A stretch of 64,000 nucleotides of DNA from a virus (IMGVR_UViG_3300007504_000003:32001-96000), one strand, 5' to 3'; shown: positions 5,409-41,694, numbered from the stretch's first letter. Made by a program: numbers and translations. Notes: generated by a model from the sequence alone, not told the origin.

Positions 5409-5410
5409 GG

Positions 5411-25602: not shown

Positions 25603-28600
25603 ATGAATCAGCATGTTCAGGTCGCTGCGGAGCTTCGCCGTCGCATGGGGAGTCTGGTGTATACCAGCTCGGGTGTGTTGTATGTCCTGACACCCGAGAC
25701 GCTGGCTCAGTTGTCTGAGGGTGACCAATGGGTCGGGCTGGTGTCTTCGGACGATCTGGAGGGGGCTCACCGGCTTGTAGAGCACTGCGGCGGGGGTGTA
25801 CTCCGGGAGCCTTCGTCGGGGACCTATGCGGTAGAGACCGTTGCCAAGTGGGGTCGTGTAGGGGCTCAGGTCGGGACTGATACCGCCGCGGTCTGGGCGA
25901 TTGCTCCGGAGCAGCTCCATCATTTTATCGAAGATGAGGGGCTCGCTGGCCTGGATTGGCAGGTGTGGGCGAATCGCTGGGAGGATCTGGAGTCGTCCTG
26001 GCGTGCTCATGGCGGCGCCGTCTTTCATACGGGTGGGGACGGGGGGTTTGAGGTTGAGGTTGAGGGAGCGGTGCGTAGTCTGGGTTTGACTCGCCCCTAC
26101 GGTACCCCGCAGTACCGGGAGGCTGGCTGGTGGGCGATCACTCCAGAGGACCCTGGAATCAACCCGCCGCCCGTGGATAAGGGCGGCCTCATGAACGCGG
26201 TCCCTGGCGTCGATCCTGATGAAGGGGCGTTGTATAACGGGGACGGCCCAGCGGACATGATGGAGGCAGTCCTCGATGAGATCGACATGATCTATCGAGA
26301 GGCGTGGGGTCGTGGGGCCACCGTGGCGGAGATGGATGCCGTCTGGGAGTTTATCTTTCGCGGGTACCGGAAGGGAGCGAAGGCGTCGGGCTGGAATGTC
26401 TGGGTAGACAAGGCGGTCGAGTTGACCGGCGTTCCAATGAAGGTTCTCCTCCTTTGTCTGGACGAGTCGAGGACTCGGGACGCTGTTCGCCTTTGGCGTG
26501 AGGGGTCTGAGCGCGGGGACTTTACGGGGTTCGGGGAACATATCAAGGCGTGTGTCAGTCTCGCCTGGGATGATTCTTCTTTCATGATGGAGCAGCTTCC
26601 AGCGAAGCCGGATTCGGTCAAGTTACTCCTGGCTCGCCAGTACCGGCAGGCGTTTGATGAGGAGCGTTTGACGGAAGCTGGTAAGGCGATCGAAGGGTTC
26701 TCTCTCGGGATGGCTCTGGCAATCACGCAGGGGTTTGTGAGCACCCACCCGTTCTTCGACCTGGGGGAGATCCGACGATTCATCCAGATCCGGAAGAAGT
26801 ACCACGGGGTGTTTACGGCAGCCGCCGCTGTGCTGGCGGAGTATTTCGGGGACGCCCCTCGATTCCAAGCCGCTATCCCGGGTCTCAGGCGGATCTCTAT
26901 CATGCCCCCGGCTCAGGTTCGGGGAGCCTTGTCCGCGGGCGTTCAGGCATTCCGGTCGCTAGGTCGTGTTCGGGTGTCGGACCTCCCCGGGTACGAGTAC
27001 CAGTCTCCTCCGCGATTGGTAGTTCAGTCCTTCGTCGCGATTCACCGAGCCTTGCGGCTCTCGGGTCTTGAGGAGCGGGGGGACTACTACCGGGCATTCT
27101 CGGACCTGGAGACCCTTCTGGACGTCTTCCTCCGGAGTCGTTCGACTCCCGCCCCCGTGAAGACTCTCTTCCGTAAGCTGAAGCTGCTGGGCATCCCCAG
27201 GGACAGCGCAGACGTGCTCCACTTCGACGCAGACCCCGGGGCTTGGTTTGACCTGACTTCGGACCAGAGAGCGGGAATCCGTAGAGAGGTTCTCGGCCTC
27301 CAAGATGAGCTGTCCTCGTTGTTCACTCGGGACATGGACGTGGAAGAGCGTTCTGCGGAAGCAAAGCGGCTGATGGGGGCGTTGTCGCAGATTCAGGCCC
27401 GAGCCGGCATCCACCTTGCTCATCTCATGGAAGAGGACCAACCTCCTCTGGACAAGGTGCTTCGATCCGAGGCTCAGGTGAACCGGGACGGGCCGACAGA
27501 ATACGTCTTGGATTCGTTCAAGAAAGACCTCCTTTCCTCCTGGGAGGAGAGCCCCTCTTTCCGGCCGAAGCTCCTCAGTAAGCGAGAGTTGGGGAAGCTG
27601 TTCACGACGCTGGACAAGGTGAAGACGTTCTCGACGATGGAGCGGGTGATCAAGACTGCGGTTCGTCGTGGTCTGCTCCATAAGACCGCTCTGGAGACGC
27701 TGACGAGCAAGCTGGATAAGGCTCGTCGAAACAAGGCTCTTCGGGACAATCCTGTCCTGGCCCCTCTCCAGTGGGAGCCGATGACGGAGCAAGAGTTTGT
27801 CGCGGCTCATGATGCGGGAGGCGTTGATTTCCGAGGAGATGCTTGGACTGAGGAGCAGAAGGCAGAGGTGCTGGGCCGGGCGAGCCGGGCGATTGTGGAC
27901 TTGGAGGGCGTCTTCGGGAAGGGGTTCTGCGGCAGGCACGCCAGGAAGTTGATGTTCCGGTTCCACGAGGGCTCCGGGACGGGGTCGGGAGCCCTCGCTC
28001 ATTACTTCGGGTGGGAGGATCGGAATCGCTGGCAGCCTCGGGTGAGCTTCGGGGAGGATTTCGACGGGCTATTAGCCCACGAGCTGTCTCATTACTTTGA
28101 AGACCTCCTGGCCTTCCGGATTGAGAAGGCGACCAACCCGGACATGCCAGAGTACCAGTATGGGGACGTAGCCCATGGCTGGGGAGACCTCTTCGGGAGG
28201 ACGGGGACCTCTCTCCGTCAGTTTGTGGAGAGGTCGGGCAATAGCACGATGGGGAAGGCTCTTCAGGAGCACTTCCCGGAGTTCTTGGAGCTGATGGCGA
28301 CGGTGGTGTCCACGCCCGATTATGCTCGGTGGGAGGACAAGATCGGCGGTGCCCTCAGTGACGCTCTCTATGAGGCGATCACTGAGGTGACGGGTCAGAG
28401 CCCCTATGCCGAGGGCAACGAGCAAGCTCGTGGTTGGATGGATGCTCAGTACCAGTCAGACCTCCCTCCGGAGGTACTGGAGGCAGCCAAGCGGAGGGCG
28501 ATTCGGCTACGGGATGGGGATCCGCGGAAGCTTACCTACTACCACTCCTCCCCAGAGTGCTGGGCTCGGCTCTGCGAGCAGTATGTCTACACGAAATTGG

Positions 28601-29346
28601 CCCGCCAGGGGATCGCGAATCCCTGGCTGACGCAGTTGACCTATGACGTGGATGTGTTGGACCAGTTCGTAGAGGAGGCCACCTTTGAAGAGCGGATCGA
28701 ACCTCTCATGGACGCCGTGTTCAACAAACTCCGGGACCGCTCGATCATCGCCCGGGTCGTTCGTCGAGAGCAGGAGCTATCTCGGATAGTTGATAGAAAG
28801 TTGATCCTGTTAAAAACAGGTACTTACGAGCGTCTCCTCCGCTGTGGGGCGGCTGAAGGAGATGGTTCTCGGGTTGGTGTCTTCATCCCCTTGCCCGCGA
28901 ATCTGGCTCAGCAGTTCCCCTCTCTCAAGGAGGATTCGAGCCCTGTTCATGTGACCTTCCTGTACGCCGGGAAGGTCTGGGAGGAGGGGTTGTTCATGGA
29001 GATTCTGAGGCGTCGGCTAGGGGAGCTGGAGGCTCCTGTCCAAGCGAGGCTGGACGGTCAGGACTTCTTCCGCAACGCAGACGGCTACATCCCTCATGTC
29101 CGGGTTCGGTTCGATCAGGATCTTGCTCGGGTTCGGAAGCTAGTGATCGACGATCTTCGGGAGGCGGGCTGGACTCTGGCGGATAGGAGTCAGATGGTGT
29201 GGCGGCCTCATGTCACTCTCGGCTACCAGAAGCCCCACTCGGAGCATTATCAGGGTGAGGTCCCGACAGGCGGTTGGGAATTTGATCGCTTGGAAGTCTG
29301 GGGCCTGGAGCGTAAGAAGGTTTTGCTCCTGGGCAAAAAAGCCTAG
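25603..29346 (+). CDS. polyvalent protein: unknown N-region + LPD1-like zincin + 2H phosphoesterase
   Basis: LAHELSHYF and YYHSSPECWARLCEQYVYTKL (LPD1-like); two HVT motifs at 28948 and 29209. Confidence 0.75.
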   Translation: MNQHVQVAAELRRRMGSLVYTSSGVLYVLTPETLAQLSEGDQWVGLVSSDDLEGAHRLVEHCGGGVLREPSSGTYAVETVAKWGRVGAQVGTDTAAVWAIAPEQLHHFIEDEGLAGLDWQVWANRWEDLESSWRAHGGAVFHTGGDGGFEVEVEGAVRSLGLTRPYGTPQYREAGWWAITPEDPGINPPPVDKGGLMNAVPGVDPDEGALYNGDGPADMMEAVLDEIDMIYREAWGRGATVAEMDAVWEFIFRGYRKGAKASGWNVWVDKAVELTGVPMKVLLLCLDESRTRDAVRLWREGSERGDFTGFGEHIKACVSLAWDDSSFMMEQLPAKPDSVKLLLARQYRQAFDEERLTEAGKAIEGFSLGMALAITQGFVSTHPFFDLGEIRRFIQIRKKYHGVFTAAAAVLAEYFGDAPRFQAAIPGLRRISIMPPAQVRGALSAGVQAFRSLGRVRVSDLPGYEYQSPPRLVVQSFVAIHRALRLSGLEERGDYYRAFSDLETLLDVFLRSRSTPAPVKTLFRKLKLLGIPRDSADVLHFDADPGAWFDLTSDQRAGIRREVLGLQDELSSLFTRDMDVEERSAEAKRLMGALSQIQARAGIHLAHLMEEDQPPLDKVLRSEAQVNRDGPTEYVLDSFKKDLLSSWEESPSFRPKLLSKRELGKLFTTLDKVKTFSTMERVIKTAVRRGLLHKTALETLTSKLDKARRNKALRDNPVLAPLQWEPMTEQEFVAAHDAGGVDFRGDAWTEEQKAEVLGRASRAIVDLEGVFGKGFCGRHARKLMFRFHEGSGTGSGALAHYFGWEDRNRWQPRVSFGEDFDGLLAHELSHYFEDLLAFRIEKATNPDMPEYQYGDVAHGWGDLFGRTGTSLRQFVERSGNSTMGKALQEHFPEFLELMATVVSTPDYARWEDKIGGALSDALYEAITEVTGQSPYAEGNEQARGWMDAQYQSDLPPEVLEAAKRRAIRLRDGDPRKLTYYHSSPECWARLCEQYVYTKLARQGIANPWLTQLTYDVDVLDQFVEEATFEERIEPLMDAVFNKLRDRSIIARVVRREQELSRIVDRKLILLKTGTYERLLRCGAAEGDGSRVGVFIPLPANLAQQFPSLKEDSSPVHVTFLYAGKVWEEGLFMEILRRRLGELEAPVQARLDGQDFFRNADGYIPHVRVRFDQDLARVRKLVIDDLREAGWTLADRSQMVWRPHVTLGYQKPHSEHYQGEVPTGGWEFDRLEVWGLERKKVLLLGKKA

Positions 29347-29365
29347 TTGGTTCGTATAGAGGGAC

Positions 29366-30634
29366 ATGTCGCCTTACGCTCCAAGAATCGCGGACCTTTG
29401 GCTGTCCCGCTCTGCGGATTCGGCTGCCCACGTTCGTTCAATCGCGTTGATGCGGTTTCTCTCCCGGCTGGCTCTCCGGCTGGGGAGAGCCGTGGCTGAG
29501 AACGTCTACGTGGTGGGCGGGGCGGTTCGGGATTTCGTCTTGGACCGTCCGATCAAGGATATCGACGTGGTGATCGACTCCGTCTCTCTCGGGAGAGACA
29601 GCGAGTGGTTCGCCCGTCAGATTTCCGCAGCCGTCCCGGCTCGGACGTCGCTGGTGACCAACAACTATGGGGTCGCCATTCTCACCATTTCGGAGTCCTG
29701 GGTTCTGGAAGGTGTGGAGATGCAGGGCGAAGTGATCGAGATCGCCAATGCCCGGACGGAGTCCTATGGGGGTGCTTCAGGGAAGGGCTACAAGCCCTCG
29801 GAGGTCGCTCCGGCGAGGATTGAGGATGACGTGGCACGCAGGGAGTTGTCCTACAACACCTTGATGATCCGGCTCCTCCATCTGGCGGACGGGCCGGATA
29901 AGGCAGACATTCTGGACCTGACGGGCTGCGGCCTCAGTGACCTGGAAGCTGGGATTATGCGTTGCCCGGCGGATCCCAACATTGTGTTCTCCGACGACCC
30001 GAGCCGGATGATCAGGGTGATTAAGTTCGCTCTTCGTTACGGGCACCGTCTCACTGAGGACACTCGGGCGGCGATCCTCAACAACGCGGAGAAGATCAAG
30101 AACATCCCGGGCGGGCATCTCATCAACCTCCTGACGGGGATCATCCTCCGTGAGGCGACCTGGAAAGAAGCCCTTCAGTGGATGCAGGATCTGAACCTCC
30201 TGGCACCGATCAGGGAGATGGTGCTGTCGGACGAGCAGCTCAAGACCTCTCTCATCAACCACATCCGGGGTTACCGGTTGGAGATGCTGTTCAGCTTGAT
30301 GGATCTGGGATTGCCGGTGGGCTACCGCGTGCGTTTCCTCCCTCGGGCGGATCAGAGTCATCTACGCGACTCTATCGGTCACTGGCCGGCTGAGGAAGCG
30401 TGGGGGTTCGTGGAAGCCTTGCGGAACCCTGGCGTCATCATCCAGGACAAGAAGTTTTTCCCTGAACTGGCTCGGGAGCATGGGTTCCTCGGCCCTCAAA
30501 TCGCGGGGTTCAACCGCGAGGTGTACCTGCCCATAGCTCGGAGGATCCTGATGGGGGATCCCCACATTCGGTTGAGCCCGGCCCGCTTTCGACGAGAGAT
30601 CGCTGACCGAGTCAGGGCACGTCTTCGGCGGTAG
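29366..30634 (+). CDS. CCA-adding/poly(A) polymerase-family (class II) nucleotidyltransferase
   Basis: VGGAVRD, DIDVV, ARTESY, RRELSYN (D to E), DDPSRMIR; no HD domain seen. Confidence 0.9.
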   Translation: MSPYAPRIADLWLSRSADSAAHVRSIALMRFLSRLALRLGRAVAENVYVVGGAVRDFVLDRPIKDIDVVIDSVSLGRDSEWFARQISAAVPARTSLVTNNYGVAILTISESWVLEGVEMQGEVIEIANARTESYGGASGKGYKPSEVAPARIEDDVARRELSYNTLMIRLLHLADGPDKADILDLTGCGLSDLEAGIMRCPADPNIVFSDDPSRMIRVIKFALRYGHRLTEDTRAAILNNAEKIKNIPGGHLINLLTGIILREATWKEALQWMQDLNLLAPIREMVLSDEQLKTSLINHIRGYRLEMLFSLMDLGLPVGYRVRFLPRADQSHLRDSIGHWPAEEAWGFVEALRNPGVIIQDKKFFPELAREHGFLGPQIAGFNREVYLPIARRILMGDPHIRLSPARFRREIADRVRARLRR

Positions 30635-30643
30635 GTTCTCTAT
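30631..30643 (+). promoter_or_regulatory. putative late promoter motif TA-N6-YTAT
   Basis: GTAGGTTCTCTAT upstream of 30658. Confidence 0.5.
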
Positions 30644-30657
30644 CTCAGTGGGGTGAT

Positions 30658-31782
30658 ATGAAGGATTACCCGCCCTCTCGTCTTGTAGCCTCTCGTTGGT
30701 TGGTTGCATCCAAGTCGAAGTACCGATCCGTTTTGCGGCGGGGTCGCTCTCGCGTGGAAGCCGCCTACCGGCAGGATGATTGGACTGCGGCTGCGGCTGC
30801 CTATGAGCAGGCGGCTTCGGCTCTCCGTCCCCTCGGGGGACTTCTGGATGGGGTTACCGTCGAGCGGCAGAGTGAGCGGAGGAAGCTGAAGAACGTCCGC
30901 CGGAACCTGTCTCTGATCAAGCGGTATACGGCTCCTGGCTTCCTCCGAGATACCGAGTATCAGACCGCCTATTGGGCTTGGAGTAGCTGGGAGACGCTAG
31001 AAGATGCCGTGAAGGCTGTTCTGAGAGTCTGGGAGCGAGTGACCGGGTACCAGAGCTTGACTCGCTCCTTCCAGCACGGCCCTTTCACGGTTGAGAATCA
31101 CTACGGCTACCGTGAGGAGGAATTGGCGGCACCCTTATCGCTCCTCTCAGGAGCGATGGATCAGATCCGCTCCCGGGGGTTTGAGGAGGTCTTGTACGGG
31201 GTCGTTCAAATAGTGAGCCCGAAGAGCGGGGGGTTCTGTGGGAGGTACTTCAAGAATGGGGACTTCCTTCAGATCAACGCGGATTGCCAGTACCGCTTAG
31301 GGGCTGTTCATACGGTGGTCCACGAGCTAGGTCACCGGTTCTGGTTCCAGAAGATGACGTCCGCACAGCAGAAGGCATATGACGACGCCTATTCGGGTAC
31401 AGCAGGCGTTGTGTTCTCTCTGGGGGACCGGGAGGACATGTGGCAGGCGTTCAAGGAAGCCGGGTACACCCTCCGAGGTGCTCATCGGCGGTTGAGGAAC
31501 CCCGCCTTGCGGGAGCATCTCTCGGATTATGTCCGGGAGAGGAGGAAGGGGTTGTTGATCGTCCCGGACCCGCGGACGGGGTTCATGGAGGCCCATGCTC
31601 AGAGAGCTTTCGTGGTCCCTTCTGTGAGAAACTTCTTCCTGGGCCGCCCCGTCTCCGTGAGTGATTACGCTGAAACAGGCGGGGTGACGGAGGATTTCGC
31701 TGAGGTCTTCGCGTTCTTCTGCACCGGGAAGAGGGTTGACGCAAGGGCTCTGGAACGCTTCCGGGACGCGACCGGCCGCTAG
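30658..31782 (+). CDS. zincin-like metallopeptidase-domain protein with tag
   Basis: VVHELGHRF ... SDYAETGGVTEDFAEVF; LVASRWL at 30682. Confidence 0.75.
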   Translation: MKDYPPSRLVASRWLVASKSKYRSVLRRGRSRVEAAYRQDDWTAAAAAYEQAASALRPLGGLLDGVTVERQSERRKLKNVRRNLSLIKRYTAPGFLRDTEYQTAYWAWSSWETLEDAVKAVLRVWERVTGYQSLTRSFQHGPFTVENHYGYREEELAAPLSLLSGAMDQIRSRGFEEVLYGVVQIVSPKSGGFCGRYFKNGDFLQINADCQYRLGAVHTVVHELGHRFWFQKMTSAQQKAYDDAYSGTAGVVFSLGDREDMWQAFKEAGYTLRGAHRRLRNPALREHLSDYVRERRKGLLIVPDPRTGFMEAHAQRAFVVPSVRNFFLGRPVSVSDYAETGGVTEDFAEVFAFFCTGKRVDARALERFRDATGR

Positions 31783-31791
31783 TTCCTCTAT
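31779..31791 (+). promoter_or_regulatory. putative late promoter motif TA-N6-YTAT
   Basis: CTAGTTCCTCTAT upstream of 31806. Confidence 0.5.
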
Positions 31792-31805
31792 GTGGGGAGG
31801 CTAGC

Positions 31806-33305
31806 ATGGAAACCCTCGCCCACGCTGAAGCCTCTGACGGCTCGCTCCCTATCATGGAGCCCCTCCACAATGTGCGGGAGGTGGCTAAGCAACTCATCCT
31901 GTTGGAAGACCACCTCTTTCATCCTGAGCGGCACTGCGAGGATTGCATCACCAAGCATCTCCTGACCGCTGAGGCGTTCGCAGAGGAGGCCCGTTCTCTC
32001 GACGTGGCGGGAGAGTTTTCCGAGCTGCTGAACCCTCTCCCAGGGGTCTTGAGGCGGCTGTTCCGAATGTTTCAGGAGGAGAAGCCGGTGCAGGAAATCG
32101 CTCAAGCAGCTCGCAAGTTGAGGAAGCGATTGATGCCGGAGACCCTCAAGGTGCGGGTGGCCTCCCGTTGGTTGTCGGCGGAGCGAGGTCGTCAGGTTTC
32201 GGACCTGCCTAGGTTTTTGATGGTGGGTAACCGCATTCTGAACAACTTGAACGCTTTGAAGCGGGCTGAGGCTGAGGGCCGCCATGACCGGTCAGTAGTC
32301 TGGGCTCTCAACACGGATTGGTCTAGCATTGTCTCAGCGGGTCGGCGGTGGTCAGAGGAGGTGATTGAGACTCGGGCTACTCCCAGGGGTAAGGCGAAGA
32401 AAATTGAGCTGGCGGTTCGGGCTTTCCAGGTCAGCCGTACTCGCGACTCAACGAAGTGGCTCAAGAAGAACCGTCGCCACATTGAGTTGCTGATTGAAGC
32501 GGAGAGGTGGCCCCTTCGCTCTGAAGCTTCCGACGATTTGGCGAGGCAGTTCCAGCAGGGTTCGTTTACCGTTCACAACACCATCCACGCTGAAGGAAAC
32601 AAGCTTCAGGCTGTCCGGGATATGATCTCTGCTGCGTCGAGGGCCCTCCCCAGGACGGGGCTCGCAGGTGCTCAGAGCATGGCTTACGGCGATCTGTTGA
32701 TTGTGGGTCAGATTGGCCGGGCGTCCTGGGCTGCGTGGTACACCCCGTCGAAGGACAATATCGCGATTCGCCCCTTCATTCGGGGGATTTCTGCGGCTGA
32801 TGCTGCTCGGCATCTTGTCCATGAGATTGGACACCGGTATTGGCATAAAGTCATCGCCCGAGATCGGGATCTGGTCCGGGCGTGGCACGCTTACCACCGG
32901 AGGCTGGGGAGCCAGCCGGTAGACCCTGTGGCTTTTCCGGGGGTTGGGGAACAGCTCCCTCACCCGATCCACATGAAGATTCTTCCTCCAGGGAGAAAGC
33001 GTAGGAAGAGGGTGCTTATTCAACCCACGGTCAAGGCTCGGGGCTCTGAGTGGGTTGAGTTTGAGGAGGCTCCCGGGGTTCGCTATAGCGTGATTTCAGT
33101 TCAGCGGATTCTGGAGAACACTGGTCGGACAGGTCGTTTCCCCTCTCCGTATGCGGCCACGGATCCGCAGGAGCATTTCTGCGAGGCGTTTTCCTTCAAG
33201 GCGTTTGGAGAACTTTCCCCTGAAGGGGTGGAAGCGTTTGACAGGATCTTTTTGGGCCGCACGGCGGCGGATCGGGTAGCCGATCGCTGGAGTGAGCAAA
33301 GCTAG
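31806..33305 (+). CDS. Cys/His N-domain + zincin-like metallopeptidase, two tags
   Basis: LEDHL..PERHCEDCITKH; LVHEIGHRY...SPYAATDPQEHFCEAF; RVASRWL at 32154, RVADRW at 33273. Confidence 0.75.
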   Translation: METLAHAEASDGSLPIMEPLHNVREVAKQLILLEDHLFHPERHCEDCITKHLLTAEAFAEEARSLDVAGEFSELLNPLPGVLRRLFRMFQEEKPVQEIAQAARKLRKRLMPETLKVRVASRWLSAERGRQVSDLPRFLMVGNRILNNLNALKRAEAEGRHDRSVVWALNTDWSSIVSAGRRWSEEVIETRATPRGKAKKIELAVRAFQVSRTRDSTKWLKKNRRHIELLIEAERWPLRSEASDDLARQFQQGSFTVHNTIHAEGNKLQAVRDMISAASRALPRTGLAGAQSMAYGDLLIVGQIGRASWAAWYTPSKDNIAIRPFIRGISAADAARHLVHEIGHRYWHKVIARDRDLVRAWHAYHRRLGSQPVDPVAFPGVGEQLPHPIHMKILPPGRKRRKRVLIQPTVKARGSEWVEFEEAPGVRYSVISVQRILENTGRTGRFPSPYAATDPQEHFCEAFSFKAFGELSPEGVEAFDRIFLGRTAADRVADRWSEQS

Positions 33306-33308
33306 CTG

Positions 33309-33321: not shown

Positions 33322-33356
33322 GGACTCCGGGGGTCGAGTCCTCTCGGAGTTGTAGG

Positions 33357-34019
33357 ATGCCCAAGGTCAAAGACCCGCTTGTCCGTCAGGCGGCGGATCG
33401 TCTTCGGGAAAGCACAAAGAAGGTGATCCGGGCTTTCGTGGAGCAAAAGCCTGGAGATAGTCGTGCTCTGAGGTCAGATGGACGGTCGTTGTGGAAGCGA
33501 TCTTTTGGGGAGAGCAAGTTCGCAGTCTGGAGAGCGGGTCGAATCCTCATCCTGAACGACGAGTCCTCTAAATTTGACGACCGGGTGATCCGGTACATCA
33601 TCCGGCTTGCAGGAAAGCCAACCGTAGCTTTCGAGTACGACCGCGGGGGTGCCCACCCCAATATGAAGCTGACGTTTGAGATAGTTTGGGATGACGTAAT
33701 CGGCCGAGAGGAGTACAAGGCTCGTCTCGGTGCCGTCATGACCGATGGGGGTGAGCGAGGGCTCGTGGGTTGGGTGGACTACTCCAAATATCAGGGGGAG
33801 TACACGATCGACCACGTTCATGTGGTGCCTGAGTATCGCCGTAGCGGGGTCGCCACTGCCTTGTATAAGGAGCTGTTCCGTCGGGAAGGGATCACTGTCC
33901 GGGACCTGGGCCCGAGCGCGAGGACCGACCTGGGGCAGAAGTTTCGGGAGAATGCCCGGCTCGCAGCAGCACGCCGGGTCGCTGCCCGTTACCTAGGGGG
34001 CAGTCGTGAGTCGGGATAA
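33357..34019 (+). CDS. GNAT acetyltransferase-domain protein with C-terminal tag
   Basis: IDHVHVVPEYRRSGVATALY motif A; RVAARYL at 33975. Confidence 0.8.
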   Translation: MPKVKDPLVRQAADRLRESTKKVIRAFVEQKPGDSRALRSDGRSLWKRSFGESKFAVWRAGRILILNDESSKFDDRVIRYIIRLAGKPTVAFEYDRGGAHPNMKLTFEIVWDDVIGREEYKARLGAVMTDGGERGLVGWVDYSKYQGEYTIDHVHVVPEYRRSGVATALYKELFRREGITVRDLGPSARTDLGQKFRENARLAAARRVAARYLGGSRESG

Positions 34020-36717
34020 AGCGGCCATTCCTTCCGTTGAGAAGGTGGTGCGTTGTTATCGTGAGACTCAGGCGAAGACGTTCAAGATTGAGGTGGGTGA
34101 CCCGATCTGGTACGGGAAGTACAAGAATAAGAAGGGGATCGTCAAGGGCTTCAAGGGGAACGACAAGGGAGATACGATCGTTGTGATCGAGCCTGACCCG
34201 AAGGGGCGGAAGCAGAACAAGGAGCTGAAGCTCTTCAAGATTCGGCCTCGGAAGGCCCATGTCTCCCCTGAGGTTTACGTTGAGGGGGACCCCGAGGATT
34301 ACCTCCGGTTCTTCCTCCGTGATGGGAGGATGGGAGAGAATTTGGCCCGGGTCTGGATTGTCCAGATGGATCCGGAGGGCTACTGGTACCTGGATAGCGC
34401 GAAGGCGTATATCCGGGGTCAGGGCTTCGGGGTTGAAGCCTACATGGCCGCGATCAAGTATGCGACGGAGCATGGGGCCGGGCTCGTCTCGGACGATGAG
34501 GCGTCAGCCGCCGCGAAGCGGGCTCGGCAGGATCTCCGGAAGCGAGGGGTTCAGTTTACTCCGGGCTACGTTTTCAAGACGCACCGGTCCTCCCATATGT
34601 TCGGGACCGCTCTTCCGGTGGACGCCTGGGATGTTCGGTCGGCGGTTCTGATGAAGTCTCGGCGTGGTCCTGCGTACCCGATCCGCCAAGCTGGCTCCGC
34701 CCCGGCTTGGGGTGCCGACAGTGTGGACGCTTTCCAGTACCTCATTCGGGGGGAGTACGACGAGGGGTTGGAGTGGGTCGAGAAGTGGGGTCTGAAGTCC
34801 TCTCAGTGGGAGGAAATCGAGGGTGGGGATGGACCCCAGGTGGCTTTGGTGAATGACGCCTTCAACGACCTGGATGACTTCATCAGTCGTCACAACGACA
34901 GGCTCCACTACCGTCACAAGGACCAGGAAGCTCGGGATTGGGCTCCGCTTGGGCGACATTTCAAGGAAGCAGGTTCGGGTCTACCTGTGGGCTGGACTCT
35001 TCGCCACAAGTGGTATGGCCGGACGCTCATGGTGGAAATCTGGGATGACCAGAAGGATGAGCAGGTTGTCCTGATGGCGACCCGAGAGTCTGTTTCTTCC
35101 ATGTCGTCAGGATGCCAGGAGGATATCCGTGCTCTCGCGGCTCAGACAGGAGCCTCGGAGGCTGACGTGCTCGTTGTACGGTCGGCCCATGCCGGGGACC
35201 ACCAGGGTCGGGGGTTTGGCCGGATGGTGTATGAGCGGGCTCTGGGAGAGGCTGCGGCAGCTAATTTGATCCTGGTCCCTGATGACTGCGAGGAAGCCCG
35301 GCGGACGAGCCCCTCAGCGGCTCGGGTCTGGGATTCTCTTCGTCGCAGGTATCCGAATGACGGGGACGCTTTCTGGGGCCGGAAGGCCAGTGAGGACGTG
35401 ATGGGTCGCACAGCGTCGTATGGGGAGCAGTTGTTTATGTTGCGGCCTGGGCAGGCGTGGTCACCCAGGTTGATGAACAACGTCACCGTGTCCACCTCCC
35501 GGTCGGATATGAACAAGCCCCGCGGCGGGTTCTGGACGTCCACGTATGCGGGGGGTCGGTCGGACTGGCTGGACTGGTGTGATCGAGAGGGCTTCCGTGG
35601 CGGCAACCAGGGGGTTCTATTTGTCCCTGGGGGCAGCGTCTTCCATATCCGCGATCTGAAGAGCTATCTCCAGCTCGCTGCGGCTCATGGTCGGGTTCAT
35701 CGCGACGCCATGTTCGGGGACACGGAGAACCTGATCGATTGGAATTCTGTCGCTCTCTACTACGACGGGGTTCACTTCACTCGGGAAGCCCTACGGGACC
35801 GTGCCTTATCCGAGTACCTCTATGGGATAGATGCGGAGTCAACGATCTGGTTCAACCCTCGGGTTCTCCAGTACAAGGGGCTCGTAGATATCCAGTCGCG
35901 GTGTCGGGTGAGAGCCGCCCGGGTTGCTCAGCGGTGGCTGGAGGGGGCTCGTCCAATTCCCTTGAACCCGGCGATGGTGGATAAGGTCGTTGCTCGGGTG
36001 GTGCGGAAGATCATTTCGGGGCTCTCCGTGTTCCGGCGAGATCGAGACGATTCTCTCTATTACGTCCGGGGCTTTGACCCGAGGAAGTGGGGCGGTGAGG
36101 TCGCGGTCTACGAGACGACCGATGTTCGGGGTCAGCGGATTAATGTCCCTGTCCGATTGAAGACAGAGCAAGAGCTATCGAATCACGTTCGGCGGTACAT
36201 CGTCGGTGGAGCGGTCAGCGCCCGGTATTCCCACGGGGAAAAGTTTGGTCGTAAGTGGCAGATGGTGATCAAGCTGAATTCAGCGAGGACTCCGAATGAG
36301 ATTATGGGGGACTTGAATCGGGTTACCCAGGAGGTCCGCTCCGTGGTCATCCACGAGGCGACTCATTTGCGAGACCTCCTCCGTCTTCAGTCCCCGGAAG
36401 ATCGGGAGACGAGTCAGCGTGACCCCGACGCCTATTACAACCTCCCCCATGAAGTTCGGGCGTTCATGCAGCAGGTCGTCGCGGAGGTGCGGGAGGGTTT
36501 GGAGGACGCCGCCAAGTCAGGGGCTCGCTGGTACTGGCGAGCCCGGAAGATCGACAAGAGGGTCTCCAGCGGCTTTGTTATGCGGGCCTTGGAGCAGGCT
36601 CCGACATGGAACCGGGTGAGGCCGTTCATGACTGAGGAAAACCGCCGGCTGATCCTCAAGGCGGTCGCGACGTCTCTGACGGATTGGGATCCTTTCTCCA
36701 TCGGGGTCCAGGTATGA
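34006..36717 (+). CDS. polyvalent protein: SH3-like + GNAT + GNAT + ART-like + HExxH domain
   Basis: IRGQGFGVEAY, HQGRGFGRMVY, PRGGFWTS...DAESTIWFNP, VIHEATH...YYNLPHEVRA. Confidence 0.72.
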   Translation: MSRDKAAIPSVEKVVRCYRETQAKTFKIEVGDPIWYGKYKNKKGIVKGFKGNDKGDTIVVIEPDPKGRKQNKELKLFKIRPRKAHVSPEVYVEGDPEDYLRFFLRDGRMGENLARVWIVQMDPEGYWYLDSAKAYIRGQGFGVEAYMAAIKYATEHGAGLVSDDEASAAAKRARQDLRKRGVQFTPGYVFKTHRSSHMFGTALPVDAWDVRSAVLMKSRRGPAYPIRQAGSAPAWGADSVDAFQYLIRGEYDEGLEWVEKWGLKSSQWEEIEGGDGPQVALVNDAFNDLDDFISRHNDRLHYRHKDQEARDWAPLGRHFKEAGSGLPVGWTLRHKWYGRTLMVEIWDDQKDEQVVLMATRESVSSMSSGCQEDIRALAAQTGASEADVLVVRSAHAGDHQGRGFGRMVYERALGEAAAANLILVPDDCEEARRTSPSAARVWDSLRRRYPNDGDAFWGRKASEDVMGRTASYGEQLFMLRPGQAWSPRLMNNVTVSTSRSDMNKPRGGFWTSTYAGGRSDWLDWCDREGFRGGNQGVLFVPGGSVFHIRDLKSYLQLAAAHGRVHRDAMFGDTENLIDWNSVALYYDGVHFTREALRDRALSEYLYGIDAESTIWFNPRVLQYKGLVDIQSRCRVRAARVAQRWLEGARPIPLNPAMVDKVVARVVRKIISGLSVFRRDRDDSLYYVRGFDPRKWGGEVAVYETTDVRGQRINVPVRLKTEQELSNHVRRYIVGGAVSARYSHGEKFGRKWQMVIKLNSARTPNEIMGDLNRVTQEVRSVVIHEATHLRDLLRLQSPEDRETSQRDPDAYYNLPHEVRAFMQQVVAEVREGLEDAAKSGARWYWRARKIDKRVSSGFVMRALEQAPTWNRVRPFMTEENRRLILKAVATSLTDWDPFSIGVQV

Positions 36718-37664
36718 GCAGTATCACCGCTGGTACCTGGGGCTACGAGCCCTGGGCGGGCGACGCTCAGGAGGACAACCTGAGCGCGGTCCTGAAGACC
36801 TTGAAGAAGGGGCCGGCATACAAGAAGCTGCGGGATCTCCGGCCAAAGGCGAAGGATCTGAAGGACGAGTCCCCGGTTCGCCAGATCCTCCTCCCCTGGG
36901 ATTGGGTGGGTGAGGTGTACCTCGTCTCAGACGCCCTCCAGGGTGTCCCTGAGAGCCTTGTGAAGCACGCCCTGGAGTTCGTAGAGGGGATCGAGGAACA
37001 CCCCGCCTACGAGGAATTCCTGGCTTCTTGGAAGGAGCCTGAGGAGTTCCCAGCTATGCGTGAGCGGGTGGAGGCGGACCTCCGTCAGGCGTTGGATTTC
37101 AGCCGTGATGGGAGGGTCAGGCTGACTATCCCTCCTATGGGTCGGCTGGCGAAATACCGGCAACCACCGCTAGGCCCCCGCCAGGATCTTGTGGACAAGA
37201 TTCGTTACCGAGTGCGGTCCAACAGTGATGGGATTGTCATCGCTCTCTATTCTGGGAGGCGTTCAGCGGGAGCGATGGTCGCGCACTGGAAGAGGTTCCC
37301 CGGGGACCTTTGCGTCTCGGATATCGGGATGCTCTCGATCACGGTGACTCCCACGCCCCAGCGGATCTTGCAGGTGTATACGTCAGGCTTGGAAGAGGGG
37401 TTCCGAGGGCTGGGATATGGTCGGGCGATGTATCAAGCGTTGATGGCGGAGGGCTGGAAGCAGGAGGGCCGCCCGTTTTTCCTGACGCCGATGTGGTGTA
37501 GCTATGGATCAGGCACGTCGGCTATGGCGATGCGAGTCTGGGATTCGCTGGCTCGACAGTATCCTTCCAGCGGCAAGGTGATTGCGGTGACGGGTCCCGT
37601 GAAGCCGGGTGTCCGGACTTCTGCGGGCGTCGTAGCGAATCGCTGGTTGGGGCTTCATGAGTGA
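36714..37664 (+). CDS. unknown N-domain + GNAT domain, C-terminal tag
   Basis: FRGLGYGRAMYQ; VVANRWL at 37629; ATGA overlap at the start. Confidence 0.72.
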   Translation: MSSITAGTWGYEPWAGDAQEDNLSAVLKTLKKGPAYKKLRDLRPKAKDLKDESPVRQILLPWDWVGEVYLVSDALQGVPESLVKHALEFVEGIEEHPAYEEFLASWKEPEEFPAMRERVEADLRQALDFSRDGRVRLTIPPMGRLAKYRQPPLGPRQDLVDKIRYRVRSNSDGIVIALYSGRRSAGAMVAHWKRFPGDLCVSDIGMLSITVTPTPQRILQVYTSGLEEGFRGLGYGRAMYQALMAEGWKQEGRPFFLTPMWCSYGSGTSAMAMRVWDSLARQYPSSGKVIAVTGPVKPGVRTSAGVVANRWLGLHE

Positions 37665-40600
37665 GACCTGTCGGTCTGCGGGTGGCAGCAAGGTGCTCTT
37701 CTACATAGGGCATCGGCCTGCTCGACCTGTCCCGAAGCGGACCTCCTGGGTAGACCGGGGACAAGAGGGGCCTGATTGGGTCCGACCCTGGTTGGATTCC
37801 CCGGTTCAGGCTGGCGTCTTTCTTACGACCAACCCGTTTAATGTAGCGACAGAGCACGGCATCATGGGCCACGTCTATGCCTATCAGGTCCCTCGGTGGG
37901 TCCTGAAGGAAGCCGGTGGTCTCCAGCGGTATGACCACGCGACCGAGGTGCTGATTCCGGAGCCCTTGTGGGAGCACGTCAAGTTTCTGGGGAAGTCTCT
38001 GGACAAGGGGGCTTTCAGGCAGCGGGTTTTAGAAGGCCAGAATGAGCGAGCCTTCGCGCCTCATAATCTGGCTGTAGGGCTCGGTGAGGCAAGAGAGGTT
38101 TACATGAGGCCGAAACCCCAGAGGGTTGCTTTCCGGTACCTTCAGTCTTCTGATATCGCGGAGCGGGTCGCCGCTCGTTACCAGAAGAAGAAGGAAGTTC
38201 CGAAGGCGAAGGGCGAGGGGACCACCACGGTGTACGAGTACAGCGAGGGTCAGGTTCAGCACCGGAATCGGGAGAAGGCGAAGCGGATTGAGAAGCTCCG
38301 CACGGGAATCGGGAAGCTGCGAGCCAAGGTCAAGGGAGACCTCACCTCGTCAGACGATAAGACCCGTTTGACAGCCCTGGCTGTGGCTTTGATGGACGAG
38401 ACCTATGAGCGGGTTGGGAATGACCAATCGGCTAAGGAGGGCCATTTCGGGGTCACTGGCTGGCAAGCCAAGCATGTGAAGTTCAGCGGGGGGAAGGCGA
38501 CCATTTCCTACGTTGGAAAATCCGGTGTCCGTCAGAAGAAAGAGGTCACCACTGCGAAGGTGGTCTCGGCACTCAAGCGGGCGATGAAAGGCAAGTCCGG
38601 GACCACGCAGGTGCTCTGCGAGGGGGATGACTGTCGGGTTCTGGCTCAGGACGTCAACGGCTACTTGAAGCCTTTCAACATCACGGCGAAGGATATCCGT
38701 GGGCTCCACGCCAATGAGGAAGTCAAGACCCGACTGAAGGAAGTCCGCAGGAAGGGCGGCAAGCTCCCGACCGATCCGAAGAAGAAGGCTGAGAAGCTCA
38801 AGGCGGAGTTCAAGGAAGCCTTGGAAGCCGCCGCTTCGGCTGTCGGTCACCAGCCCGGCACCCTCAAGAGTCAGTACCTCGTACCTGGAGTAGAGCAGAC
38901 CTTCCTGAAGGATGGCTCTGTTTCCGTGAAGCACGCCTCCAGCCGGGTCGCGATTATCAATCTCAACCACGCCACGGATGGGGAGAAGGGAGACCACTCC
39001 CTACGTGGAGTGGCTGGGTTGATCTCCAGTCTCACCTACTATGAGCGGGCTCTGGTTCAGGATATGCTGGTTCACGATCAGCCAATCCGGAAGGGGAAGG
39101 AGGGGTATTCTCTTCGCGGCCACCCCGTCATGTCTGATGCTGTAGGTGAGCTGGTCGCCGCGGGCTATCTGGAGGGGGAGGGGGAGGTCCGGCTCTCGGG
39201 GTTGTTCCTGGCGAAAAAGAAGCTCTACAAGAAAGAAGCTTCCCTGGACCGGGCGGCGGAGGCTTTTCTGTCTTCTGCCCCGGAGAAGTGGGGTCGGGCA
39301 GATCTCCTGGCTTTCACTCGGGTCGATCCCTGGTTCCAGGCGATGACTCTCCCCTCACGAGTCGCAGCGGCGGGTGAGTTGTTTGGTCGGGTTCTCCGAG
39401 CGGGTGTCATGGATCGCTCACATCCCCAGGCGGTAGCCTGGGTGGAGTCGTTTTTTCAGCGGCATCCAGCTCTGCGTCGCTACCAGGGGATTCCGGTTCT
39501 CCACGTCTCCTCGCCGGGGTCGGGTTCGCATCCCGAGGCTCGTCAGACCTATCGGGGGATTGAGCTGTATCCGAAGTTCTGGGGTCACTCCACGGAAATC
39601 CAGGACTTCATCTTCGCGCATGAGATCGGTCACGCGGTTCGATCGGAGTGGGGCTTGGCTTTTGGCGTGGCTGCTGCTGCTCTTGGGATTGACCCGTGGG
39701 ATACACCGAATCTCCCCTTCGGTCAGTTCAATCAGGACGAGGCCTTCGCGGATTCCTTCGCCAGTTATTTCACGGATGGGGATGTAGGTCGGAGGTATCC
39801 GGCGTGGAGTCGGCTCGTAGAGGAGGGGCTCCGGATTCGGGTAGGGAAGAAATCCCCCGCGGACAAAGAGGATGCCGAGGTAGAGCGGCTGGTGAGGCCC
39901 TCGCCTAAGAAGAAGCCGCCGCGGAAGGACAAGAGACGAGAGCAAATTCGTGAGGAGGATCGGGACACGGACGGAGACCGGGACACCAAGCGAGACAAGG
40001 ATATGAGCCTCAACTACAAGGATAGCGTCAGCCGGGTGGCGGCTCGTTATCTGGAGGCCCTCCGCGTCAAGACGGTTCGGGTCTTGAATACGGATACCGG
40101 GAAGATGGAGAACATCTCTCCGGAGCGGTTCCAGAGGAACCCGGGGAAGTACAAGCTGTGGCGGGACATGTCCCCCGAGGAAAAGGACAAGAATAGGCTC
40201 CGTAAGAAGCCTCCGGTTGAGGAGACTCCCCAGGAGGAAGAGGCGGAAGAAGCTCCTCAGGAAGAGGAGGGAGGAGAGGAGGGGGAAGAGGAGGAAGAAG
40301 AGGCCCCCCAGGAAGAAGAGGCCCCCCAGGAGGAAGAGGTTTCCCAGGAGGAAGAGGTTTCCCAGGAAGAAGAATCTACGAGTGACCCGGACACGGAGGA
40401 CTACGAGGATGTGTCTTCCCTGCTGGAGGAGATCCCGGAGTCTCTGACTCCGGAGCAGAAGGCAATTCGCCGGAGCGAGTTGGTTGAGGCTGCCTTGTCC
40501 GTGATGACGAACAAGTTGGCGGCTGCTGAGAAGGAAGTGGCTGAACTGGAGGAGTCCCTGGATTCCCTTTTGGCTGACCCTGCCACGACCAGTAAGCAAA

Positions 40601-41694
40601 AGGCGTCTGCGAAGCAGAAGCTCCAGGCAGCGGTGAAGGGCCGCAACGAGATGAAGAAGGAGGTGTCCCGCCTCCAGAGCCGTCGGGACACCCTGGAGTC
40701 CGAGCGGCAGCAGAGAGAAGACGCTGCGGCTGCAAAGAAGATGAAGTCTGAGCGAGCCAAGGCTCTACAGGACTTGGTCGGTCAGGTCGGCGGCATGGTG
40801 GATCGTCTGGATGATCCTGGCGGGGATTTCACTGACCCGCTGGAGGTCGGTCAGATGTTCTACAAGGAAATCTCTGGTCTGACCCCAGCAGAATCTCAGA
40901 GCCTCGTCGATCAGATCCAGGACCGAGTCCGGGAGCTTCCGGGAGAGGAGTCCGTTCTCCGGGCAGGGTATGTGGCTGCCCTCGACGCGGTGGAGGTTGC
41001 GTCTATCGTTCGTGGTCAAGAAGTCGCCATTGAGGGGCGTTCCCCGCTGATGCAGATGGCTCACCGTCTTCTGAAGACGGTCGCGAAAATCCCTGGAAAG
41101 GAGGTTGACCTTCTTGGAGTGGGTCGCGGGGTCGGGTCAGGCTCCTGGGTTGGGATTTCGGACCAGATTAAGAACCTCTCCCATGAGGATCTGGTCCGGG
41201 TGGTAGGGGCTGACTCGGACCAACACCCCTTTTCCGGCATGGCGAAGTTCTTGCTGGACTCTGAGGCTCCTGATGAGCGGAAGGCGATGGCTCGCCAATG
41301 GATGCAAGATGCCGCCTTGGACGCTTTTGGTTTGCTCTCCCCGGTGGCAGAGGAGATCGTTCAGGACAGTCGGGATCTGGGTTCCGGAGCGGGTGAGGAA
41401 TTGGTGATAGAGGTGCAGGAGGCATACGCCGGCACCTGGGCTGCCGTGGAGGGTGGGGGCGACAGCGACGACCAAGAAGAGGCCGATCTTTACTCTTTTG
41501 AGGACCCTCTTCAGGAAACCCTGGGGAGCCCGGAGAAGCAGGAGGTCTCGCGCTTGGATAGCCTTCAACGTGTTCTGGACATGCTCCAGAAGCGGTTTGA
41601 GGGGGTTCGTACACGGACTATGAAAGTAATCGAGGCCCTCCTCATTAAGGGGGATCCGGACGTGGGTCCGGTCTCGTTCAACCGAGCAACCTAA
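37657..41694 (+). CDS. polyvalent protein: ART-like + topoisomerase IB + HExxH domain + acidic linker + coiled coil
   Basis: TopIB residues RVGN, GKSG, KDIR, GH...QY; FAHEIGH...DEAFADSF; three RVAxRY tags. Confidence 0.82.
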   Translation: MSETCRSAGGSKVLFYIGHRPARPVPKRTSWVDRGQEGPDWVRPWLDSPVQAGVFLTTNPFNVATEHGIMGHVYAYQVPRWVLKEAGGLQRYDHATEVLIPEPLWEHVKFLGKSLDKGAFRQRVLEGQNERAFAPHNLAVGLGEAREVYMRPKPQRVAFRYLQSSDIAERVAARYQKKKEVPKAKGEGTTTVYEYSEGQVQHRNREKAKRIEKLRTGIGKLRAKVKGDLTSSDDKTRLTALAVALMDETYERVGNDQSAKEGHFGVTGWQAKHVKFSGGKATISYVGKSGVRQKKEVTTAKVVSALKRAMKGKSGTTQVLCEGDDCRVLAQDVNGYLKPFNITAKDIRGLHANEEVKTRLKEVRRKGGKLPTDPKKKAEKLKAEFKEALEAAASAVGHQPGTLKSQYLVPGVEQTFLKDGSVSVKHASSRVAIINLNHATDGEKGDHSLRGVAGLISSLTYYERALVQDMLVHDQPIRKGKEGYSLRGHPVMSDAVGELVAAGYLEGEGEVRLSGLFLAKKKLYKKEASLDRAAEAFLSSAPEKWGRADLLAFTRVDPWFQAMTLPSRVAAAGELFGRVLRAGVMDRSHPQAVAWVESFFQRHPALRRYQGIPVLHVSSPGSGSHPEARQTYRGIELYPKFWGHSTEIQDFIFAHEIGHAVRSEWGLAFGVAAAALGIDPWDTPNLPFGQFNQDEAFADSFASYFTDGDVGRRYPAWSRLVEEGLRIRVGKKSPADKEDAEVERLVRPSPKKKPPRKDKRREQIREEDRDTDGDRDTKRDKDMSLNYKDSVSRVAARYLEALRVKTVRVLNTDTGKMENISPERFQRNPGKYKLWRDMSPEEKDKNRLRKKPPVEETPQEEEAEEAPQEEEGGEEGEEEEEEAPQEEEAPQEEEVSQEEEVSQEEESTSDPDTEDYEDVSSLLEEIPESLTPEQKAIRRSELVEAALSVMTNKLAAAEKEVAELEESLDSLLADPATTSKQKASAKQKLQAAVKGRNEMKKEVSRLQSRRDTLESERQQREDAAAAKKMKSERAKALQDLVGQVGGMVDRLDDPGGDFTDPLEVGQMFYKEISGLTPAESQSLVDQIQDRVRELPGEESVLRAGYVAALDAVEVASIVRGQEVAIEGRSPLMQMAHRLLKTVAKIPGKEVDLLGVGRGVGSGSWVGISDQIKNLSHEDLVRVVGADSDQHPFSGMAKFLLDSEAPDERKAMARQWMQDAALDAFGLLSPVAEEIVQDSRDLGSGAGEELVIEVQEAYAGTWAAVEGGGDSDDQEEADLYSFEDPLQETLGSPEKQEVSRLDSLQRVLDMLQKRFEGVRTRTMKVIEALLIKGDPDVGPVSFNRAT
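40303..40374 (+). repeat. four in-frame 18-nt tandem repeats (A/V-P/S-QEEE)
   Basis: gccccccaggaagaagag / gccccccaggaggaagag / gtttcccaggaggaagag / gtttcccaggaagaagaa. Confidence 0.9.

Follow-up and report, generated by a model that had tools for sequence, protein, structure and literature searches.

Here we describe an array of eight consecutive genes, g1 to g8 (positions 25603-41694), that interrupts the head-gene operon of an uncultured phage (IMGVR_UViG_3300007504_000003). The window, by which we mean the whole analysed stretch of 64,000 nucleotides (nt), comprises bases 32001-96000 of a 126-kb linear contig. Over the eight genes we distinguish about 20 modules: a 2H phosphoesterase, a CCA-type nucleotidyltransferase, a topoisomerase IB (TopIB), four GNAT or GNAT-like domains, one domain with an ADP-ribosyltransferase (ART) fold, five gluzincin-like domains and several small modules without known function. 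We propose that the array is a hypervariable island of polyvalent-type enzyme genes within the head operon, whose products would be loaded into the prohead, cut apart and ejected, and we put the probability of this reading at roughly one half. The proposal draws on the enzymes encoded, on their reshuffling among related phages, and on a short peptide, R-V-A-x-R-[WY]-L (hereafter the tag), that recurs at module joints and has a core in common with proteins of head assembly. A first-pass annotation of the window had described an exchangeable cassette array of virion-delivered host-takeover and anti-defence enzymes; its observations are largely confirmed, and its interpretation is partly supported.

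Enzyme modules of the array

The array consists of tightly spaced, co-oriented open reading frames (ORFs), with lengths in amino acids (aa):

25603-29346, plus strand: g1, 1247 aa, zincin/LPD1 unit and 2H phosphoesterase
29366-30634, plus strand: g2, 422 aa, class-II CCA-adding/poly(A)-polymerase-type nucleotidyltransferase
30658-31782, plus strand: g3, 374 aa, gluzincin-like module
31806-33305, plus strand: g4, 499 aa, four-helix bundle and zincin
33357-34019, plus strand: g5, 220 aa, GNAT acetyltransferase
34006-36717, plus strand: g6, 903 aa, GNAT-like, ART-fold and zincin domains
36684/36714-37664, plus strand: g7, 326 aa from a TTG at 36684, more likely 316 aa from the ATG at 36714, GNAT fold
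37657-41694, plus strand: g8, 1345 aa, TopIB and zincin

The domain list of the first-pass annotation (LPD1-like, 2H, CCA-type, TopIB, five HExxH, four GNAT, two ART-like) largely survives; the GNAT domains hold in number and vary in firmness, and one of the two ART-like domains was found, at the level of fold. The 2H domain of g1 (aa 1082-1244) exceeds the Pfam cut-off (PF13563, 2.6e-8, 34.5 bits against 27) and has both of its motifs, HVTF and HVTL, 87 residues apart. Upstream of it lies a unit of about 700 aa (369-1061) with a zincin HExxH at 826, whose H826, E827 and H830 are invariant across six homologues, and an LPD1 domain at 977-1045; the LPD1 match is weak in g1 itself (4.3e-5), and PF18796 is recorded for four of the six homologues. 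Two N-terminal modules of g1 (aa 85-187 and 172-345) recur in relatives. In g2, PF01743 (PolyA_pol head, 3.3e-16) and phrog_2244 (tRNA nucleotidyltransferase, 3.5e-26) match a protein with intact motifs A, B and D (GGAVRD at 51, DID at 65, RRE at 158, DDPSR), which on sequence is assigned to the class-II CCA-type family, an assignment that does not distinguish CCA from A or poly(A) addition. The protein begins with a tag variant, RIADLWL (aa 7-13), and tag-like N-termini also occur in its relatives.

TopIB, at about aa 177-428 of g8, matches PF01028 at 3.7e-24 and has the full set of active-site residues: its Arg, Lys, Arg, His and Tyr align to those of the Deinococcus radiodurans enzyme (2f4q) in the segments ERVGND, YVGKSGV, TAKDIRG, VGHQPG and KSQYLVP. 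It is preceded by an N-terminal module (6-133) and the tags RVAFRYL (156) and RVAARYQ (170), and followed by a zincin (HEIGH at 655), a basic linker with the tag RVAARYL at 793 (nt 40033-40053), an acidic, coiled-coil tail (848-1021) and a C-terminal region.

All five HExxH motifs (g1, g3, g4, g6 and g8) are present, each with a helix of the form E-x-[FW]-[AC]-x-x-[FVY] about 60-160 residues downstream, the gluzincin pattern; the MPTase-PolyVal model of Pfam had no match in the array proteins. Behind an N-terminal tag LVASRWL (aa 9-15), the module of g3 (HELGH at 222, then TEDFAEVF) is paralogous to that of g4 (E 6e-6) and weakly matches the peptidase family phrog_4415 (5e-4). The order in g4 is a four-helix bundle, g4N (aa 1-117), the tag RVASRWL (117-123, nt 32154-32174), a zincin with HEIGH at 339, an RTAA site at 485 and a second tag, RVADRWS (490-496, nt 33273-33293). 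The bundle itself (window 31806-32156) is confidently predicted, and its invariant E, D, H, C, C, H, E and E resemble a metal site in the model. Neither a sequence profile nor Foldseek gave a PDB match for g4N beyond generic four-helix bundles, and its structural and sequence relatives (29-38% identity) are exclusively uncharacterised proteins of giant eukaryotic viruses: Fadolivirus, Tetraselmis virus 1 and Yasminevirus.

The GNAT domain of g5 (aa 121-180) is firm, with PF14542 at 1e-7 (32.4 bits against 30) and PF00583 at 5.4e-6 (27.1 against 20.7) both above curated cut-offs; the protein has a C-terminal tag, RVAARYL (aa 207-213, nt 33975-33995). The remaining three assignments, two in g6 and one in g7, are softer, resting on sub-cut-off Pfam matches, Atlas fold and paralogy. 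After a small module (aa 4-79) common to TopIB-bearing proteins elsewhere, g6 has GNAT-like domains at about 100-200 (match at 132-159, 18.9 bits, below the Pfam cut-off) and about 330-466 (residues 370-456 paralogous to the g7 GNAT domain, E 3e-8), and then RKAS and RTAS sites at 459 and 468. In g7, an N-terminal half without assignment precedes a GNAT fold at aa 162-310 or so, for which residues 214-260 match Pfam below cut-off (E 0.033, 14.9 bits) and the Atlas model matches GNAT clusters at template-modelling (TM) scores of 0.56-0.70 by row; a C-terminal tag variant, VVANRWL, follows.

The C-terminal half of g6 holds the ART-fold domain (472-631, window 35419-35898), the tag RVAQRWL (639-645, nt 35920-35940) and a zincin with HEATH at 783. 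Residues 472-631 belong to a phage family without a Pfam entry, phrog_8582 (463 clusters at 50% identity), most members of which stand alone at 150-190 aa; its invariant residues are K, P, W, S, D, E and W. The predicted model is confident (predicted local distance difference test score, pLDDT, 92), and in a VIA structural comparison all 26 of the rows at Z>=2 were ART-fold proteins, with a best Z of 4.2 (root-mean-square deviation 4.5, 97 residues); these neighbours include MbcT, NatT, ParT, diphtheria and cholix toxins, PARPs and RES, and the top row, at low Z, is a region of the cyanophage A4 pre-ejectosome chain. Foldseek with the same domain returned nothing significant and Pfam no match, and we treat the ART assignment as a weaker, fold-level lead from the predicted structure. 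A search of all eight proteins for canonical R-S-E ART triads gave a single, spurious match in the acidic tail of g8. An ART-like H-Y-E pattern suspected by eye in the g8 N-terminal module (6-133) did not hold up, since homologues do not keep the His; searching PDB sequences with a profile of this module gave nothing, it has just one stand-alone homologue, and we leave it unassigned.

Module content varies between constant head genes

From its portal, terminase, prohead protease and major capsid protein (MCP) sequences, the phage is placed among the phage-G-like huge phages. Among deposited records, the uncultured phage LR745208 (485 kb; portal about 60% identical) comes closest, followed by Tunturiibacter phage Tunturi_5 (309 kb) and Bacillus phage G (498 kb). 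Because related IMG/VR contigs of comparable size have CheckV-type completeness of 12-31%, the 126-kb contig is a piece of a much larger genome. Scanned with the portal C-terminal domain, IMG/VR gave 80 loci at 62-69% identity, onto which we mapped the array proteins.

Across these approximately 80 relatives the frame is constant: portal, variable block, p169, p171, protease, scaffold, p220, MCP, where p169 and p171 are conserved head-operon genes and p220 is decoration-like. The portal-to-protease block measures 3.6-9.8 kb where the protease falls inside the fetched 10 kb and 12.4-18.8 kb in five extended relatives; over 36 distinct relatives its length has a minimum of 3.6, a median of 5.5 and a maximum of 18.8 kb, and it reaches 19.1 kb in this window. 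Counted over 31 complete blocks, p171 occurs in all 31, g4N in 22, p169 in 20, TopIB in 17, 2H in 7 and the CCA enzyme in 4, each remaining array module occurring in 1-3; in 22 of the 31 the portal is followed first by g4N.

Modules are also fused and reordered, in proteins of 1358-2257 aa. Single proteins join 2H, tag and CCA enzyme (loci L053, L078 and L082) or 2H, tag and TopIB (L038, L041 and L043); g4N, g6N and TopIB share a 2257-residue protein in L090, g6N, TopIB and g1[88-181] a 2044-residue protein in L093, and a g7-type GNAT and TopIB a 1662-residue protein in L092. The 2H and CCA enzymes are adjacent in 7 of the 13 loci holding both. A tail-sheath-like gene in one relative's block shows that a few relatives depart from the usual order downstream of the portal. 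The block is thus exchangeable, with modules reshuffled, fused, split or missing; as the first-pass annotation expected, it is neither invariant nor purely structural. By megablast, the phage collection had no match to the 16-kb block, and a Pfam scan of ten ORFs left unexplained in the blocks of relatives gave almost nothing.

In three loci (L090:5810-8081, L092:3788-6422 and L093:1914-3902), inserts of about 1 kb split the homologue of the CCA-type enzyme. Because one of these inserts matches the intein of this window's TerL, even a cargo enzyme gene hosts inteins.

These presence counts bear on the possibility that the modules are helpers in head assembly and DNA handling, with TopIB relieving the torsion of packaging and releasing about 0.5 Mb of DNA, zincins aiding maturation and the rest serving as internal head proteins for charge balance or spacing. 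TopIB is the most widely kept enzyme module and always stands last before p169-p171-protease, g4N and p171 are near-universal, and the long acidic coiled-coil tail of g8 resembles the scaffold and p169. An assembly factor should be indispensable, however, and about half of the relatives manage without TopIB and most without 2H, CCA, GNAT and ART-fold modules; nor do the RNA-repair and acetyltransferase modules have an obvious assembly role. We regard this explanation as improbable.

A recurrent peptide at module joints

The form R-V-A-x-R-[WY]-[LSQ] occurs at 12 in-frame plus-strand sites on the contig, against about 0.005 expected (an estimate from residue frequencies), with one further match to R[VIL][AV]xR[WYF] outside the RVA consensus. 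As first noted for this array, the tag or a close variant is carried by seven of its eight genes, g1 being the sole one without a full tag, and g4 and g8 have several copies. Searched in looser form over the contig and the 80 relatives, it gives 72 distinct plus-strand sites and 4 on the minus strand; the extended consensus is (L/S)-A-x-R-V-A-[SA]-R-[YWF]-L-x-A. The tag is a basic, amphipathic peptide and stands at N-termini, at C-termini and at internal module joints. In the g4N model the tag falls just beyond the folded bundle, in a low-confidence stretch, as a linear motif would.

The same joints are tagged in relatives whether the flanking modules are fused or split, as seen for 2H/CCA, 2H/TopIB and g4N/next module. 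After g4N the relatives have RVASRF, RVADRW, RVAKLY or RVALRF; before TopIB they have RVAARY, RVAAKY or RNVAAKY, then KKK. In minimal blocks tags lie at protein ends (a C-terminal HRIVARYLSE, SRIASRYL at the next N-terminus, and KVASRYL ending the p171 homologue), and here it is the core proteins that are tagged: the g4N protein, a large low-complexity protein and p171.

The position of the tag at exact module exchange points would also suit a DNA-level recombination signal for module exchange, with no function as a peptide. The 21-nt sites, however, have a mean nucleotide identity of 67% against an amino-acid identity of 76%, and where residues are identical their codons are identical in just 40% of cases; because synonymous codons vary freely, the tag is selected as peptide and not as DNA. 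The variable residues are in addition chemically constrained (W/Y/F, S/A/D). On the codon evidence we rejected the recombination site, to which we give almost no credence.

Tagged sequences also occur outside the array. A 42-codon ORF at window 10508-10636 consists of an N-terminal tag, MMREARVASRWL..., and 30 further residues, which makes it either a minimal peptide with a tag or what is left of a lost module. Enzymes encoded at a distance from the head operon are tagged too: in locus L094 (contig 5365-6372, beyond the window), a C39-family peptidase (Pfam 2.4e-9) has RVADRWL at residue 257 and a run of lysines after it. For a 357-aa protein ending in RVALRWL, which the first-pass annotation took as sigma-like, Pfam gave no support. 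A complex prediction pairing p169 (alignment A3) with the tag-bearing C-terminal 45 residues of g5 scored 0.00; run without controls, it speaks neither for nor against binding.

The core of the tag recurs in head-assembly proteins

The central part of the tag, [KR]-x-A-[SA], recurs at characteristic positions in proteins of head assembly. The prohead protease has W-x(2-4)-[KR]-x-A-[SAG] about 20-28 residues from its start in 29 of 31 distinct sequences; p169 has K-x-A-S ahead of its hydrophobic C-terminal tail in 11 of 13; and the scaffold has mostly 2-4 (range 1-5) [KR]-x-A-[SAG] sites ahead of its LSKLWESAPDVS tail in all 14. Prohead proteases normally trim themselves or free the scaffold at such places, as established for HK97-, T4- and phiKZ-type systems. 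By analogy, we infer that these positions are the expected maturation sites in this clade.

Both R[VIT]A[SA], with 22 sites on the contig (shuffles, 7.3 +/- 2.9), and [KR]xA[SA], with 112 (shuffles, 66 +/- 8), exceed the shuffled expectation. Within the array, core sites sit on module borders even without the aromatic half of the tag: RVAA (170) and KHAS (425) bracket the g8 TopIB, RKAS and RTAS precede the g6 ART-fold domain, and RTAA precedes the last tag of g4. The TopIB polyproteins of relatives keep the tags and have no HExxH, so the built-in zincins cannot be the general processing enzyme, and the cutter would act in trans. In three relatives (L021, L062 and L065) the TopIB polyprotein continues into p169 as a single ORF, which ties the enzymes physically to a head-operon protein.

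These observations also bear on whether the island is simply a hot spot for accessory genes from which nothing is packaged, its counter-defence and RNA-repair enzymes acting in the cytoplasm and the tag being a linker or a cut site for the proteins' own zincins. Five of the eight array proteins do carry a zincin module, self-processing by zincins has been proposed for polyvalent proteins (PMC5512222), minus-strand non-head genes are inserted at the same place, a lone TATAAT lies upstream of g1, and enzymes of these types work without a capsid. Such a hot spot sits poorly, however, with a junction core conserved also on the head-assembly protease, the scaffold and p169, with tagged TopIB polyproteins that have no HExxH, with the fusion to p169, and with tags on core head-operon proteins of minimal relatives. 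We consider it unlikely, though it keeps appreciable weight.

Flanking head genes and spacer elements

The array lies among the following genes of the window:

16499-19828, plus strand: TerL with an intein
20419-23787, plus strand: portal with a LAGLIDADG intein (about nt 21418-22980); phrog_16240 portal, 6.1e-25, and LAGLIDADG_3
23784-25537, minus strand: three genes, from ORF calls, between the portal and g1
25603-41694, plus strand: g1-g8
41854-42888, plus strand: p169 and p171, between g8 and the protease, closing the island
42888-46949, plus strand: prohead protease with two inteins (about nt 43284-44474 and 44799-46256) and a conserved W-x(2-4)-R-[VT]-A-[SA] close to the N-terminus, matching phage G gp19
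46960-48276, plus strand: scaffold with acidic repeats
48465-49127, plus strand: decoration-like p220
49141-50016, plus strand: HK97-fold MCP, 40% identical to phage G gp27

The portal and the prohead protease are the conserved upstream and downstream borders of the island. The array does interrupt the head-gene order, with TerL and portal upstream and protease, scaffold and MCP downstream, and its eight plus-strand ORFs are consecutive as first described; two additions to that layout are the three minus-strand genes between the portal and g1, and p169 and p171 between g8 and the protease. The minus-strand trio comprises a 98-aa ORF, a 251-aa protein matching Pfam DSPc (1.8e-4, below the curated cut-off) and a 180-aa protein with a SWIM zinc finger (4.2e-4), and the AT skew flips at this trio.

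The portal is 60-69% identical to the portals of LR745208 and the 80 IMG/VR contigs, most of which have no intein insert. Inteins are unusually many here, with one each in TerL, the portal and a ribonucleotide-reductase-like gene (contig 17219-21436) and two in the prohead protease; those of portal and protease are missing from most relatives. The acidic p169 has a conserved N-terminal domain, and p171 combines an SH3-like part with a zinc ribbon. In the scaffold of the window, R-K-A-S and K-x-A-S sites lie ahead of the conserved tail, and four tandem DPDEALLQQMLAEE-type repeats accompany long acidic runs. Acidic character is common to the scaffold, p169 and the g8 tail (aa 848-900), a charge opposite to that of the basic tags.

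A perfect hairpin, CCCCTGTAAACAGGGAG, lies at window 48430-48446, about 20 nt upstream of the decoration/MCP operon. The element CCTGxAAACAGGGAG is also found upstream of the p220 homologue in nearly all IMG/VR relatives, and a similar CTCCCTCGTAAAGGGAG stands ahead of another contig gene (genome 98400-98453). It has no Rfam entry and may be a leader element for highly expressed late genes.

Spacers between g1 and g5 measure 19-51 nt, and the ORFs of g5/g6, g6/g7 (where the ATG of g7 overlaps the g6 stop) and g7/g8 overlap, so these pairs are translationally coupled. Each spacer before g2-g5, and that before p169, contains TTC(N0-2)[GC]TAT[ACG], a YCTAT[CG]/GTATAG element. Hits of the [GC]TATA[GC] class are intergenic in 36 of 90 cases on the contig against 4.8 expected (5% of the contig is intergenic), and elements of the CCTATC/TCTATA type also precede the g4N and p169 homologues of relatives. 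The promoter motif reported by the first-pass annotation is thus present in these spacers, as a putative promoter: the elements are consistent with phage-specific promoters common to array and head genes.

In the form ...[CG]TATAG[GA]... (29347-33356, 41695-41853 and further spacers), the motif is similar to T7/SP6-type promoters at their initiation end (CTATAG|G). The large ORFs scanned on the contig, which is a fragment of the genome, included no T7-like, single-subunit RNA polymerase. A scan of 23.5-43 kb for sigma-70 promoters and terminators gave nothing above shuffles, and Rfam and tRNA scans returned nothing. The divergent spacer 25538-25602 holds a TATAAT and a bidirectional hairpin.

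A proposed model of head-delivered enzymes

In the scheme that we favour, the array proteins would be made together with the head proteins and taken into the prohead, where the prohead protease would cut them at the junction motif into separate enzymes to be ejected with the DNA. Going by what is known of the families, the 2H and CCA enzymes might then mend damaged tRNA 3' ends in the infected cell, TopIB might relax the incoming genome of about 0.5 Mb, and the GNAT, ART-fold and zincin modules might modify or cut host proteins. If every module is freed at its tag, gene boundaries are irrelevant, which would explain the free fusing, splitting and reordering in relatives. Delivery in the virion is plausible from the position in the head operon, the p169 fusion in three relatives and the junction core on protease, scaffold and p169.

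Several observations weigh against this scheme. CCA, 2H and topoisomerase enzymes are ordinary cytoplasmic enzymes, active without packaging. The sole plus-strand TATAAT of the 64-kb window lies 32 nt upstream of g1 and could mark a host-type early promoter. The full tag is missing from g1, and g2 and g3 have variants only. At 1e-3, tblastn of g1-g8 found no match in the head regions of Tunturi_5 and of phage G, the nearest cultured relative. Finally, a tag 4-10 residues from a terminus makes little sense as a cut site alone. Such a position fits docking better than cutting, and the peptide may do both; the capsid targeting sequence of T4 serves both docking and cutting.

Tentatively, and with rather less confidence than a balanced bet would call for, we suggest that RVAxR[YWF]L/[KR]-x-A-[SA] may be a general load-and-cut address of phage-G-like huge phages, such that any enzyme gaining the peptide would be packaged, released and injected. 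If so, an evolvable plug-in toolkit, including a working TopIB and a tRNA 3'-end repair pair, would enter the cell ahead of gene expression, and huge phages would have a simple, portable rule for capsid content. This would explain how phages arrive pre-equipped against tRNA-cutting and other defences, and would add TopIB and a CCA-adding enzyme to the list of virus-particle enzymes. It would further permit sequence-based prediction of virion cargo in thousands of uncultured huge-phage genomes and provide a short peptide with which proteins of choice could be loaded into phage heads. Should the delivery scheme fail, the island still shows clearly how domains are shuffled at a hot spot that keeps its place in a conserved operon.

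Comparison with known systems

The closest described concept is that of the polyvalent proteins of phages and conjugative elements (PMC5512222; Iyer, Burroughs, Anand, de Souza and Aravind 2017). Those of phages combine zincin, LPD, 2H, GNAT and ART domains, their genes lie next to that of the portal, and packaging has been proposed for them. At the level of sequence the array qualifies as polyvalent: g1 (zincin/LPD1 and 2H), g6 (GNAT-like, ART-fold and zincin) and g8 (TopIB and zincin) each have at least two unrelated effector domains per polypeptide; a zincin-like metallopeptidase is the recurring hub, accompanied by LPD1, 2H, GNAT and putative ART-type domains, the repertoire that the first-pass annotation recognised; and the genes lie beside portal and packaging genes, with architectures heavily shuffled among relatives. 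The array departs from the published concept in distributing its modules over eight genes rather than one giant protein, in joining them by a conserved peptide tag not described in PMC5512222, in including TopIB and a CCA-type nucleotidyltransferase, which are not among the polyvalent domains of that paper's main text, and in probably being cut by the prohead protease in trans and not by a built-in zincin.

Large multidomain enzymes are also built into the head by phage P1, whose Dar proteins (DarA, DarB, DdrA, DdrB, Hdf and Ulx; PMC5512222), at least one of them proteolytically processed, enter the head during morphogenesis and are injected to protect the incoming DNA. They have no sequence similarity to the array proteins and no known shared junction tag, and their genes do not lie between portal and protease.

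The g8 TopIB aligns over the catalytic core with the D. radiodurans (2f4q) and vaccinia/variola (2h7f) enzymes, including the active-site Arg, Lys, Arg, His/Asn and Tyr. Unlike the poxvirus and bacterial enzymes, it is a module of about 250 residues in a 1345-residue mosaic, bracketed by the junction motif. Poxvirus TopIB is carried in the virion core. Reports of phage TopIB concern some group 2.2 jumbo phages (PMC7824862) and do not describe it as a module of the head operon. Proteomics of phage G particles found many enzymes in purified virions (PMC12484599); by analogy this makes the cargo idea not far-fetched for the clade, and it is silent on g1-g8.

The closest mechanistic parallels are the cargo of the T4 capsid targeting sequence (CTS) and the ejection proteins of SPN3US. 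In T4, the CTS directs the loading of Alt and the internal proteins, which the prohead protease trims (summarised in PMC5512222); SPN3US, a phiKZ-like giant phage, packages many ejection proteins and cleaves them (PMC7411985, PMC10052503). As with the CTS (IPI-III and Alt, with gp21 as protease), the array has a short portable peptide on unrelated proteins encoded with head genes; the motif is common to expected head-protease substrates, and a predicted ADP-ribosyltransferase-type fold is among the enzymes, which would be injected. The signals themselves differ. Those of T4 and SPN3US are N-terminal only, that of T4 strictly so and ending in L/I-x-E, and the SPN3US sites are of the A-x-E type; the array tag is basic and aromatic with a [KR]-x-A-[SA] core and, rather than forming an N-terminal signal that ends at the prohead protease consensus, stands at N-termini, at C-termini and between modules. 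Beyond the polyvalent concept, then, the array adds dispersal over eight genes, a junction peptide, a TopIB together with a CCA-type enzyme and, probably, reliance on the prohead protease.

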